Shown here piece after piece: positions 26,520 through 30,104 of a DNA stretch of 64,000 nt. Made by a program: the position numbers and the translations under genes. Source of the stretch: Clostridia bacterium (GTDB taxonomy: Bacteria > Bacillota > Clostridia > TANB77 > CAG-508); assembly GCA_051891435.1 (NCBI GenBank), contig JBJFFE010000072.1, positions 8,084-72,083 of the forward strand, given 5' to 3'. The number at the start of each line of letters is the position of its first letter. Position 1 is the first letter of the stretch. The notes under the pieces are model-generated. The model searched no databases. It had not been told where the DNA came from and saw nothing but the letters and a program-made list of their open reading frames with translations.

Positions 26520-27245
26520 TTATTCTTCCCAGTTATGGAACACTTCTATTACATCATCTAATTCGTCTAATTTTTCTAGTAATAATTCCATTCTTCTTAC
26601 TCCGTTTTCGTCTAATGTAACATATGTACTTGGAACCATTTGGATTTCTGCTTCTACAAAAGTTAAGCCATTATTTTCTAATGCCTCTCTTAATGCAGAA
26701 AATTCTGCTGGTGCACATGTTATTTCATAAATTTCTTCGTCAGTTTCCATATTATCGGCACCATTATCTAAAGCAAGCATCATTAAATCATCTTCGCTTA
26801 AGTTTGTTGCTGCTTTTTCTATAACAATAACACCTTTTCTTTCAAACATATAAGATACACAACCTGCTGTTCCTAAGTTTCCACCAAATTTATCGAATAC
26901 ATGTCTTACATCTGCTGCTGTTCTATTTTTATTATCTGTTGATGCGTTTACAATTATAGCAACACCATTTGGTCCATATCCTTCATATGTAATTTCCTCG
27001 TAATTCTCACTATTATTTGCACCTGCTGCTCTTTTTATTGCACCATTAATTGTATCATTTGGCATGTTATTTGCTTTACATTTTGCAATAACATCTCTTA
27101 ATTTCGCATTTCCCGCTGGATCTGGTCCACCTTGTTTTACAGCCATTAATAATTCTCTACCTAATTTTGTAAATATTTTTCCTCTTGCTGCATCTGCTTT
27201 TCCTTTTTTTGCTTGAATATTATGCCATTTGCTATGTCCTGACAT
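26520..27245 (-). CDS. yebC: YebC/PmpR family DNA-binding transcriptional regulator
   Basis: [31 protein letters not shown] signature. ATG 27245 (AAGGAGG upstream) is preferred over ORF-track 27278. Confidence 0.92.
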
Positions 27246-27367
27246 GGTTAATTCCTCCTTTTTGATTTTCCTTATCAACTTTTTCTATTATAGCACATAT
27301 AAAAAACTTTTGGTAGAGTTTTATAAATATTTTTTATATTTTCCTTTCCTTTTTTTATTACTATATT

Positions 27368-27436
27368 TTAGTGATTTTTCTTATATATAACAATTACTGC
27401 TACAACTATGATTGCTCCTACTACTAATTTTACCAT
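27368..27436 (-). CDS. unannotated 22-aa hydrophobic peptide
   Basis: GGAGGT RBS 8 nt upstream of ATG. MVKLVVGAIIVVAVIVIYKKNH. Paralogous to the adjacent peptide. Confidence 0.5.
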   Translation of the reverse strand: MVKLVVGAIIVVAVIVIYKKNH

Positions 27437-27475
27437 ATTGAATTACCTCCTTTCATATATCATGTTACGTATTAT

Positions 27476-27553
27476 TTATTTGTTTTTCATATAAATAACA
27501 ACACATATAACAGCAACAACTATAATTACACTTATTCCAAATAATTTACCCAT
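27476..27553 (-). CDS. unannotated 25-aa hydrophobic peptide
   Basis: GGAGGT RBS 7 nt upstream of ATG. MGKLFGISVIIVVAVICVVIYMKNK. Confidence 0.5.
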   Translation of the reverse strand: MGKLFGISVIIVVAVICVVIYMKNK

Positions 27554-27600
27554 AATCTTTTACCTCCTATAATTTAGTCATTTGCTCTTTTGATGTTGTT

Positions 27601-27665
27601 ATTATAGCTTGGCAAAGTAAAATTAAGGTTAAATTAAAGTAAAAAAATGGTAAAGTTAAGGTAAA
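27601..27665 (-). promoter_or_regulatory. -10 element preceded by five direct pentamer repeats phased at 11 bp
   Basis: Plus-strand GTAAA/GTTAA at 27617, 27628, 27639, 27650 and 27661 (minus strand TTTAC C/T, TTAACC). TATAAT on the minus strand at 27606-27601, with no good -35. Confidence 0.55.
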
Positions 27666-27676
27666 ATTTTAATATT

Positions 27677-27715
27677 AAAAAAATCATTCTATAAAATATA
27701 TAGAATGATTTTTTA
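27677..27715. terminator. bidirectional hairpin terminator 3' of the ZIP transporter gene
   Basis: AAAAAATCATTCTATA...TATAGAATGATTTTTT, a perfect long inverted repeat flanked by A/T runs. Confidence 0.75.
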
Positions 27716-27732
27716 TTGTTATTTAAAGCAAT

Positions 27733-28509
27733 TTATCCCAAAGTTACGTCTAATATCATCATAATAACAAAGCCAATGGCAACTCCTATTGTTCCAATAT
27801 TTGAGTGTTCTCCTACTTGTGATTCTGGTATCAATTCTTCCACTACAACGTATATCATTGCCCCCGCTGCAAACGATAACAGGTATGGAAGAATTGGAAC
27901 CACTGCCTCTGTAAGTAATATTGTAATTATTGCAGCAATTGGTTCAACTATTCCAGATATAGCGCCATATAAGAAAGCCCTGGGCTTTGATACTCCTTCA
28001 TTTTTTAGTGGCATTGATATAATTGCCCCTTCTGGGAAGTTTTGAATTGCAATACCGATTGCTAAAGCCAACGCTCCTGCCATTGTAATTCCTGTATTCC
28101 CTAAAATAGCACCTGCGAAAGTCACTCCAACTGCCATTCCTTCTGGTATATTATGAAGTGTTACAGCAAATACCATCATTGTTGTTTTCTTTAATTTTGA
28201 TTTAATTCCATCTGGTTTGTCACTTTCTAAGTGCATATGAGGTATTACACTATCTAATATAAGTAAAAATGTTATTCCAAGTAGAAAACCAAGGGCAGCA
28301 GGAAGCCACCCTATTTTTCCCTGCCCTTCTGCCATTTCAATTGATGGTATAAGAAGAGACCATATAGATGCTGCTATCATTACACCTGATGCAAATCCTA
28401 AAAGTATTTTTTCTACTTTTTTATCCATTTCTTTTTTCATTAGAAATACCATTCCAGCCCCCAACACTGTTCCTATAAATGGTATTAATAATCCAATAAA
28501 AATTTTCAT
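27733..28509 (-). CDS. ZIP family metal (zinc) transporter
   Basis: Eight-TM protein with the ZupT-type HNIPEGMAVG and QNFPEG motifs. Confidence 0.88.
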   Translation of the reverse strand: MKIFIGLLIPFIGTVLGAGMVFLMKKEMDKKVEKILLGFASGVMIAASIWSLLIPSIEMAEGQGKIGWLPAALGFLLGITFLLILDSVIPHMHLESDKPDGIKSKLKKTTMMVFAVTLHNIPEGMAVGVTFAGAILGNTGITMAGALALAIGIAIQNFPEGAIISMPLKNEGVSKPRAFLYGAISGIVEPIAAIITILLTEAVVPILPYLLSFAAGAMIYVVVEELIPESQVGEHSNIGTIGVAIGFVIMMILDVTLG

Positions 28510-28532
28510 ATCAAATCACTTTCTTTTTATTA

Positions 28533-29963
28533 TTATATGTGTTTTATGTTTGTATATTTAGAAATATCATTATTTGTAGTAACTATATCATAATTACTTA
28601 AACTATGTATATCATAATTTCCTGTTATTCTTGCAAATGTTTTAAGTTCATCATTTACTACATTAAAATAATTTTCTAATCTTTTGCTACTTTCTTCTAT
28701 ATGAAATCTTTTTCTCAATTCAGGATCTTGTGTTCCAATTCCAACTGGACATTTTCCTGAATTACAAGACCTATATTGTTGACACCCTATTGCAATCATA
28801 GCAGCAGTTGCAATTGCAACTGCATCAGCTCCCATAGCAATTGCTTTTGCAAAATCTCCAGATGTTCTAAGTCCTCCTGTAATAATTAATGAAATATCTT
28901 CATTGTGCTCATCTAAATATTTTCTAGCTCTATATAATGCGTAGATTGTTGGTACTGTAGTAGTATCTTTTATAATTTTAGGGCTTGCTCCTGTTGCTCC
29001 GCCTCTACCATCTATTGTAATAAAATCAGGTTTTGCATAACATGCAAAGTCTAAATCTTCTTCTATATGTCCTGCTGCAATTTTTATACCAATTGGTCTT
29101 CCTTCTGATTTTGTTCTTAATTCTGAAACTAAGTATTTTAAATCTTCTCTGGTTTTAATTTCTTCAAATTTAGATGGACTAATTACATCTTCATGTACAT
29201 TTTTACCTCTTATTTTTGCAATTTCTTCTGTTACTTTTTCTCCTGGAAGGTGTCCCCCCATTCCTGGTTTTGTTCCTTGACCAATTTTTATTTCAATCGC
29301 ACTTACTTTCTTTAAGTTTTTATCATTTACACTATATTTATTAGGAACATATTCAAAAATATATTGATATGAGTTTTCGAATTCTTCTGGTAGTATTCCA
29401 CCTTCTCCACTACATATAGCAGTTTTTACTCTACTTGTTCCTATTGCTAATGCTGTTTTGGCTTCTTTTGATAGAGCACCAAAAGACATGTGCGATACAA
29501 AAACAGGAGATTCTAATACCATAGGTTTTTTTGCATTTTTTCCTATAATTGTTCTTAAACTTACTTCTTCATCATCAAAAAGAGGCATCTTATTTAGTTG
29601 TCCTCCAAGTATTAAAATATCATTCCAACTAACTACTGGTAATTTTGTCCCCATTGCTGATATAATACTTCTTCCCTCTATTGCCATAGTATGGATATCT
29701 GACATGTTTTTTTCTTTTTCATCAGAATCACGCTTATATTCTTTTAGGTAGCTTTTTAATTTATTCTCCTTATGTTCTCCTTGGTTTGTTTCTTCTTTTT
29801 TGTTTTCTGTATTGTTATTTTCTTCTACTAATTTAAACATATTCTTTGGTGCAAAACACATTGGGCAGGTCCAATCATCTGGTAAATCTTCGAATTTAAC
29901 TCCCTCTTTTTCCTCATCATAAATATGCCCACATAATTGACATTTATACTTTGCCATATTCAT
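28533..29963 (-). CDS. rubredoxin domain fused to FMN-binding glutamate-synthase-like (GltB domain 2) protein
   Basis: N-terminal [10 protein letters not shown]...[10 protein letters not shown] (rubredoxin). C-terminal GEGG...[16 protein letters not shown]...[11 protein letters not shown] (GltS FMN domain). Confidence 0.85.
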
Positions 29964-29972
29964 TCCTCCTTA

Positions 29973-30104
29973 TTATTTATTATTTTTTTCATTGTCATAT
30001 TCTTTTAATGCATTCTTTACTGCCATTTTTATAACAAAATATGCAACAATTGAAATTACAGCTATCACAATTGCATACATAAATAAAGTTGCTATTGCTA
30101 CCAT
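29973..30104 (-). CDS. unannotated 43-aa single-TM protein, first gene of the rubredoxin-GltS operon
   Basis: GAGGGA RBS. MVAIATLFMYAIVIAVISIVAYFVIKMAVKNALKEYDNEKNNK. Its stop codon begins the string TAATAAGGAGGAATG, which supplies the RBS and start of the next gene. Confidence 0.5.
   Translation of the reverse strand: MVAIATLFMYAIVIAVISIVAYFVIKMAVKNALKEYDNEKNNK

Follow-up and report, generated by a model that had tools for sequence, protein, structure and literature searches.

The window, by which we mean the whole stretch of DNA analysed, 64,000 nt in length (contig C72:8084-72083), belongs to a host assembly of 1.31 Mb in 78 contigs with 28% G+C, and contains a 487-nt spacer between a ZIP-family transporter gene and yebC in which two very short open reading frames, pepA and pepB, follow one another on the minus strand. 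An earlier note on this DNA had placed two tandem mini-ORFs of 22 and 25 aa at 27368-27553, and these coordinates were confirmed. In the direction of the minus strand, the features of the locus are the following:

28509..27733, minus strand: ZIP-family transporter gene, identified by Pfam
27676..27714, minus strand: intrinsic terminator of the ZIP gene, a perfect 16-bp stem (arms 27678-27693 and 27699-27714) with a 5-nt loop
27616..27665, minus strand: five direct repeats 11 bp apart (TTTACC, TTTACC, TTTACT, TTAACC, TTTACT)
27606-27601, minus strand: perfect TATAAT -10 box by sequence, with no recognisable -35 hexamer
27567-27562, minus strand: pepA Shine-Dalgarno sequence GGAGGT, exactly 8 nt before the ATG
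27553..27476, minus strand: pepA, 25 aa, MGKLFGISVIIVVAVICVVIYMKNK, with a 19-residue apolar stretch, Lys3 on its N-terminal side and a C-terminal KNK
27450-27445, minus strand: pepB Shine-Dalgarno sequence GGAGGT, exactly 8 nt before the ATG, within the pepA-pepB spacer
27436..27368, minus strand: pepB, 22 aa, MVKLVVGAIIVVAVIVIYKKNH, with a 15-residue apolar stretch, Lys3 on its N-terminal side and a C-terminal KKNH
27279..27367, minus strand: pepB-yebC spacer, with a fold of -8.1 kcal/mol (z = -1.1) and no convincing terminator
27245..26520, minus strand: yebC, identified by Pfam, with its start at 27245

The two peptide genes lie 39 nt apart, and the GGAGGT sequences, ATG starts and suitable spacing that had been attributed to them are present in both, with the same 8-nt distance in each. 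From base composition, 0.024 copies of GGAGGT per strand are expected in the 487-nt spacer; two are observed, more than chance would give, and an ATG with an open frame follows both at the proper distance. The hexamer is the working ribosome-binding site of this organism, since, of its 326 occurrences in the genome, 193 are followed by a start codon at a distance of 4-10 nt and 131 stand before ORFs of at least 50 codons. Genes as short as these fall under the cut-offs of gene finders, and as a result are missing from annotation and from protein databases.

Paralogy, coding constraint and distribution

In a global alignment with BLOSUM62 the two peptides score 48, against 15.3 +/- 6.5 for composition-preserving shuffles (z = 5), and the score of 48 was reached by 1 of 20,000 shuffles. 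Natural hydrophobic mini-ORFs with ATG starts in the host genome (n = 786) gave best scores of 26-31, far under 48. The proposal that the peptides are paralogous and share an IIVVAVI core and a VIY.KN tail was borne out by these scores: pepA and pepB are true paralogues. The duplication extends to the DNA, as a unit with a spacing of 108-117 nt and 72-74% identity that includes the Shine-Dalgarno region.

Eight of the 22 aligned codons are identical, seven differ synonymously and seven non-synonymously, the latter changes clustering at residues 2-8. Nei-Gojobori estimates of pS and pN, and the numbers of differences at codon positions 1/2/3, were as follows:

All 22 codons: pS 0.64, pN 0.21, differences 4/5/11
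Core plus tail (IIVVAVI..VIY.KN.): pS 0.76, pN 0.09, differences 1/1/8

Eight of the ten differences in the core and tail are at third positions (binomial P = 0.0034 for at least 8 of 10), and the divergence of the two copies, over n = 22 codons, bears the mark of selection acting on the peptide sequence encoded in this frame. Mainly because pepA and pepB have diverged like coding sequence under purifying selection, we judge the ORFs to be translated, and we consider it highly probable that both are real translated genes. The earlier note had made the same claim, which finds support in the coding-type divergence of the copies and in their strong, accessible ribosome-binding sites. Within-genome comparison of paralogues can thus establish coding constraint where orthologues are absent, all of the paralogue statistics resting here on 22 codons.

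Between the host and six congeners, yebC shows a pS of 0.07-0.52 and a dS of 0.076-0.87, and the pS of 0.64 between pepA and pepB exceeds the pS of yebC between the host and most congeners. On the face of it, the duplication would be older than most of the genus, with the wide error bars that come with 22 codons.

Conservation in related genomes, which the earlier note had named as bearing on the reality of the reading frames, was absent. Six congeneric species yielded no orthologue, whether at the syntenic site or in the rest of the genome: the yebC-upstream syntenic regions of all six are devoid of pepA and pepB, and an HMM built from both peptides gave no match in their genomes. The yebC-upstream region of 20 relatives held no similar mini-ORF, and a pattern combining the ribosome site, M-[GV]-K-L and a Y-[KM]-K-N tail found only the host genome among 400 family genomes. 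A strict degenerate pattern had no match in 185,579 species genomes or in JGI metagenomes, and a relaxed pattern had 4 and 18 matches, respectively, all of them spurious because they broke the frame, contained stops or lay within other genes; patterns of this kind would miss homologues with a changed M-x-K start or Y-x-K-N-x-stop tail. Searches with tblastn against plasmids and phages gave no match, under a low-complexity filter that may hide some; a DNA search with the 441-nt locus in 40 relatives returned short AT-rich chance matches only; and a protein search in 60 relatives returned nothing credible, at a poor sensitivity with which even the paralogue was missed. No significant match to either peptide was obtained in Pfam, NCBIfam, PHROGs, PADLOC or PDB, the best family matches being to DLW-39 (14.6 bits, cut-off 24) and YldA (12.5 bits, cut-off 27), both under the cut-off, and a literature search for IIVVAVI, the core string, returned no paper. 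At the search sensitivity used, the pair is an orphan. Exact look-ups with the ZIP and YebC proteins recovered one other public contig, and because this is 100% identical over 5.7 kb, it provides no strain variation for an independent test of selection. Since no orthologue was found in the relatives and collections searched, the support for real genes comes solely from the comparison of the paralogues.

No congener has kept the arrangement upstream of yebC, where the neighbour differs from one congener to the next. The nearest congener, whose yebC is 99% identical, is without a segment of about 2.7 kb that comprises a rubredoxin-GltS-like gene, the ZIP gene and the peptides (window 27279-29972), and has the 43-aa membrane ORF that lies at 29973-30104 in the window directly upstream of yebC (L030, G006:C4:500-2200); in another congener, the ZIP gene is followed by an unrelated 290-nt spacer before yebC. 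Kinship of the peptides with this nearby 43-aa membrane ORF was considered and rejected, the similarity being at the level of composition only.

Orphan status, together with the high variability of the yebC-upstream spacer across the genus, is what would be expected if the two frames were not functional genes, being instead relics or chance products of AT-rich DNA, a duplicated fragment, or young genes without an established function; AT-rich genomes yield many hydrophobic mini-ORFs, as the 786 counted in the host genome illustrate, and the statistics cover 22 codons. However, the concentration of differences at third positions, with pS well above pN and the P value given above for the core, is at odds with such an origin, and neutral decay in DNA of 28% G+C, where stops are expected at about 8% of codons, would break the frames. 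Because the synonymous divergence of the copies exceeds that of yebC between most congeners (0.64 against 0.07-0.52), the two frames and their two perfect ribosome sites have long been kept, and we regard an absence of function as unlikely.

Transcription unit, repeat array and RNA structure

The peptide unit is set apart from the ZIP gene by the intrinsic terminator of the latter, which folds with -15.8 kcal/mol (minus strand z = -7.3, plus strand z = -6.2) and whose hairpin (27678-27714) is flanked by T runs on both strands. Ten bases downstream of this hairpin on the gene strand begins the array of direct repeats, whose five units start at 27665, 27654, 27643, 27632 and 27621, in the order given above, and of which the last stops 9 bp short of TATAAT. 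Conservation of the unit extends to TTTACYTT, and Tandem Repeats Finder assigns the array a period of 11 and 4.7 copies. The TATAAT box was omitted by a simple promoter scan because it has no -35 hexamer; from the sequence only, the predicted transcription start lies near 27594, and the 5' leader would measure about 41 nt.

In the 1.31-Mb genome, this array is the only site with at least three phased TTTAC(C/T)-type units, and shuffled sequences contained none. Among 100 related genomes, the four-unit pattern was found only in the host genome and in one unrelated tandem repeat, while the reversed control pattern of four units occurred about 14 times, so that phased arrays are not vanishingly rare. 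A wider regulon of TTWACY sites in the host genome was rejected, as two-unit sites outside the array were at chance level (11, as compared with 18 for the reversed control). In promoters activated by the OmpR/PhoB family, such as those of PhoB and PhoP, repeats spaced by one helical turn take the place of the -35 hexamer. By this layout, the five-unit array is a candidate binding array for a winged-helix activator of the OmpR/PhoB type; it could alternatively be a degenerate tandem repeat or curved DNA.

Three OmpR-family regulators are encoded in the host genome (C37:37266-37988, C16:49219-49872 and C16:58933-59604), one of them YycF/WalR-like (328.6 bits against a cut-off of 340) and the other two linked to ABC transporters. 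Elsewhere in the genome, arrays phased at 11 bp are in wide use but are built of TGTAAY, as in front of the walR-like gene, and assignment of a regulator to the peptide array failed because its hexamer differs from this one. Assignment through co-occurrence was equally uninformative: a kinase 96% identical to that of one candidate system, the second ABC-linked one, is present in the nearest congener, where the peptides are missing.

Several regulatory features were observed at other sites of the genome. TGTAAY arrays in 11-bp phase lie upstream of many genes (C37:38093 on the minus strand, C30:22328, C30:48066, C51:13192, C61:10729, C71:11567 and others), the array upstream of the walR/yycF-like gene reads TGTAAT-N5-TGTAAT-N5-TGTCAC, and two-unit TGTAAY sites number 58 against 38 in the control; such arrays are probably the regulon of the walR/yycF-like regulator. 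The sensor kinase gene beside this regulator (C37:36047-37207, minus strand) encodes 386 aa and stops right after the N-box of the ATPase domain (..LSNSVKYTGKRRHNKNICRICI), which suggests a frameshift or an assembly error. At C16:45480-45530, GTCACTT direct repeats with 11-bp spacing lie just upstream of an extended -10 box and precede BceAB-like ABC transporter genes, themselves located before one two-component system, and are likely the operator of the regulator of that adjoining system.

Downstream of the peptide genes, yebC has its own extended -10 promoter, TGcTATAAT (TG at 27295-27294, TATAAT at 27292-27287), conserved upstream of yebC in congeners, and read-through from pepAB into yebC is possible because no convincing terminator follows pepB. 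For the predicted pepAB mRNA, folding shows no excess of structure over shuffled sequences (z = -0.09), and the Shine-Dalgarno sequences of both pepA (-1.7 kcal/mol, z = +0.66) and pepB (z = +0.39) are unpaired in the predicted fold. Separately, repeat units at 27644-27671 (TTTACCTT) show partial complementarity to 27425-27439 and 27553-27565 (AGGTAAAA and ATGGTAAA), where the ribosome sites and starts of both peptide genes lie, a complementarity that would matter only with transcripts reading through the ZIP terminator; the idea that, in a longer leader, these units act against the Shine-Dalgarno sites was rejected, as the fold was not significant (z = -0.6).

These RNA features bear directly on the suggestion of the earlier note that the peptides have the format of type I toxins. 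In this scenario pepA, pepB or both would damage the membrane and be held in check by an unrecognised antisense RNA, in the manner of Fst, PepA1, Ibs or TxpA. Type I systems consist of a hydrophobic peptide of 20-60 aa and a cis-encoded antisense RNA of 60-200 nt with its own promoter and terminator, the toxin mRNA having a sequestered Shine-Dalgarno sequence, 5' and 3' stem-loops and a terminator (PMC8594479); tandem duplication of type I loci is documented by Fozo et al. 2010, as cited in PMC8594479. In size, single hydrophobic helix, basic tail and tandem arrangement, the pair matches this format. A patchy, lineage-restricted distribution with turnover, of the kind seen for pepAB, is typical of toxin-antitoxin cassettes. 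Weak promoter-like sites do exist on the plus strand, one at 27262-27291 and one, with 10 of 12 matches, at 27545-27573, and transcription from either direction would be terminated by the hairpin at 27678-27714.

What stands of the suggestion is therefore the size, the hydrophobic helix and the basic tail, whereas the RNA and operon features weaken it: the Shine-Dalgarno sites are open in an unstructured mRNA, in the longer leader as well as in the predicted one; no 3' terminator stem-loop follows pepB (z = -1.1); and a single promoter would serve both cistrons, which lie 39 nt apart, where a type I arrangement would give each of them a promoter and an antitoxin of its own. On the opposite (plus) strand, the number of promoter-like matches is what chance predicts (14, with 13.4 expected), Rfam gave no family match at the locus, antitoxin families included, and neither Pfam nor NCBIfam gave a match to toxin families. 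Likewise, comparison with the type I toxins of Firmicutes (Fst, TxpA, BsrG, PepA1/SprA1 and, from PMC7699646, the C. difficile CD0956.2 type) shows a shared small hydrophobic helix with a basic tail and a shared lineage-restricted, often duplicated, intergenic occurrence, but pepAB differs from them in having no Shine-Dalgarno sequestration, structured mRNA, 3' terminator or promoter-like antisense signal above the chance rate, and its operon layout is atypical of them. We do not think that the pair is a constitutively repressed toxin, and a type I function in general appears improbable; if the peptides were toxins, they would make up a new family, type I-like but with an unusual operon organisation.

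Peptide chemistry, known systems and a possible role

Both peptides are strongly hydrophobic, with GRAVY values of 1.77 for pepA and 1.66 for pepB that rise above 3 in their apolar stretches (19 and 15 residues, respectively). Their hydrophobic moments are low (0.04-0.14, with 0.14 for pepA), and in each peptide the helix is preceded by one Lys and followed by two. By hydropathy and low hydrophobic moment, both have a single transmembrane helix in a protein of fewer than 50 aa, and are predicted to be membrane-spanning helices and not amphipathic, surface-active ones.

This uniform hydrophobicity also weighs on the idea that the peptides are released to act on other membranes, as a leaderless two-peptide bacteriocin or a surfactant pair switched by a response regulator. 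The staphylococcal psm-alpha genes are a precedent for such a pair, being tandem paralogous genes of about 20-22 codons with their own ribosome sites and no leader, driven directly by a response regulator. pepAB is alike in consisting of tandem paralogues (about 20-25 codons) that have no signal or leader and a strong ribosome site apiece, and in its candidate regulator-dependent promoter; a species-specific distribution would also suit competition factors. In contrast, the psm-alpha peptides are amphipathic and exported whereas pepA and pepB are uniformly apolar, with moments that favour staying in the membrane, and the psm-alpha system has a LytTR-type regulator with a different repeat spacing as well as a dedicated exporter, for which no counterpart is seen at pepAB. 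The neighbours are the ZIP transporter and YebC genes, with no adjacent exporter, immunity or processing gene, and no family match points to such a function, so that we hold a released pair to be very unlikely; on the same moments and the same lack of an adjacent exporter or immunity gene, membership among the leaderless bacteriocins or phenol-soluble modulins was rejected.

Two further candidates were discarded. SHP/Rgg pheromones do not fit, as no Rgg-type regulator gene is adjacent and the C-termini are basic (KNK, KKNH) and not apolar; KdpF does not fit either, the downstream gene being yebC and not a kdpFABC operon, and no KdpF match having been found in Pfam or NCBIfam. In Clostridioides difficile, some copies of the CD1980.2 family of small proteins are under two-component control; this family comprises proteins of 58-60 aa with a predicted four-helix fold, is partly riboswitch-controlled, and has no sequence similarity to pepA or pepB (PMC13724677).

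A closer parallel in format is offered by enterobacteria. MgrB, PmrR, MgtS and MgtR are tiny single-pass peptides that are expressed from promoters activated by the OmpR/PhoB family and bind a larger membrane protein. They resemble pepAB in peptide format and in the activator-type layout predicted for its promoter, and differ from it in having no sequence relationship to pepA or pepB and a length of about 30-47 aa against 22-25 aa, pepA and pepB being moreover a duplicated bicistronic pair from a different phylum. Of the two formats named in the earlier note, that of a small membrane regulator would fit an activator-type promoter better than that of a type I toxin does.

The explanation that we favour, tentatively and as a whole at somewhat less than an even chance, is that pepA and pepB are genuine translated genes forming one small operon of membrane modulators. 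Transcription would start past the ZIP terminator, from a promoter with a perfect -10 box and without a -35 hexamer, at which the five TTTACYTT units, one helical turn each, would occupy approximately positions -22 to -71, counted from the predicted start; to judge from this layout, the promoter may depend on a response regulator of the OmpR/PhoB family. As both ribosome-binding sites are strong and unstructured, the peptides would be made whenever the promoter fires, and as each is a single non-amphipathic helix with one Lys on the N-terminal side and two on the C-terminal side, insertion into the membrane of the producing cell is to be expected. There, the pair may act as signal-induced small modulators of a larger membrane protein, either a sensor kinase or a transporter, as MgrB, PmrR and MgtS do. 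Regulator-induced modulators of this kind would extend the MgrB/PmrR principle to a reduced-genome clostridial lineage. The locus is a credible, uncharacterised orphan small-protein pair of an uncultured organism, which limits both surprise and testability.

A horizontally acquired cassette from an unsampled source lineage is a further scenario, in which terminator, five-unit array and two diverged helices acting as a heteromer would have arrived together. It would explain how the paralogues can be older than most of the host genus and yet have no orthologue in 185,579 species genomes, and it would imply a new family of membrane-acting peptides, be it a toxin, a competition factor or a kinase modulator; we consider it a rather unlikely origin. 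The membrane-modulator operon remains our preferred reading of the locus.

Other genes for small peptides were observed in the host genome. A five-copy family of very hydrophobic peptides of 35-39 aa, with the consensus M-I-E-x-S-L-L-L-I-I-Y-L-L...I-L-S-K and no match in NCBIfam, is located at C37:16307(+), C45:30665(+), C41:8646(+), C63:3481(-) and C16:51219(+), each copy being preceded by a conserved leader ('gagaataagcag...') and by a strong ribosome site of the GAGGAGGTG type. Another two mini-ORFs in tandem, both with GGAGGT in front, occupy C51:34576-34745 (minus strand) and encode peptides of 38 and 35 aa rich in Cys, Gly and Asn with a central I/L block; this second pair had no match in NCBIfam and is reminiscent of the tiny YjcZ-type membrane proteins of Firmicutes. 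Finally, two copies of a mini-ORF of 22-24 aa with a GGAGGT site and a His-Thr repeat, MLKAVT(I/V)GAVHTHTH(T/I)HT.., were found at C19:3208 and C59:26077, both on the minus strand, and could encode a leader or a metal-binding peptide.
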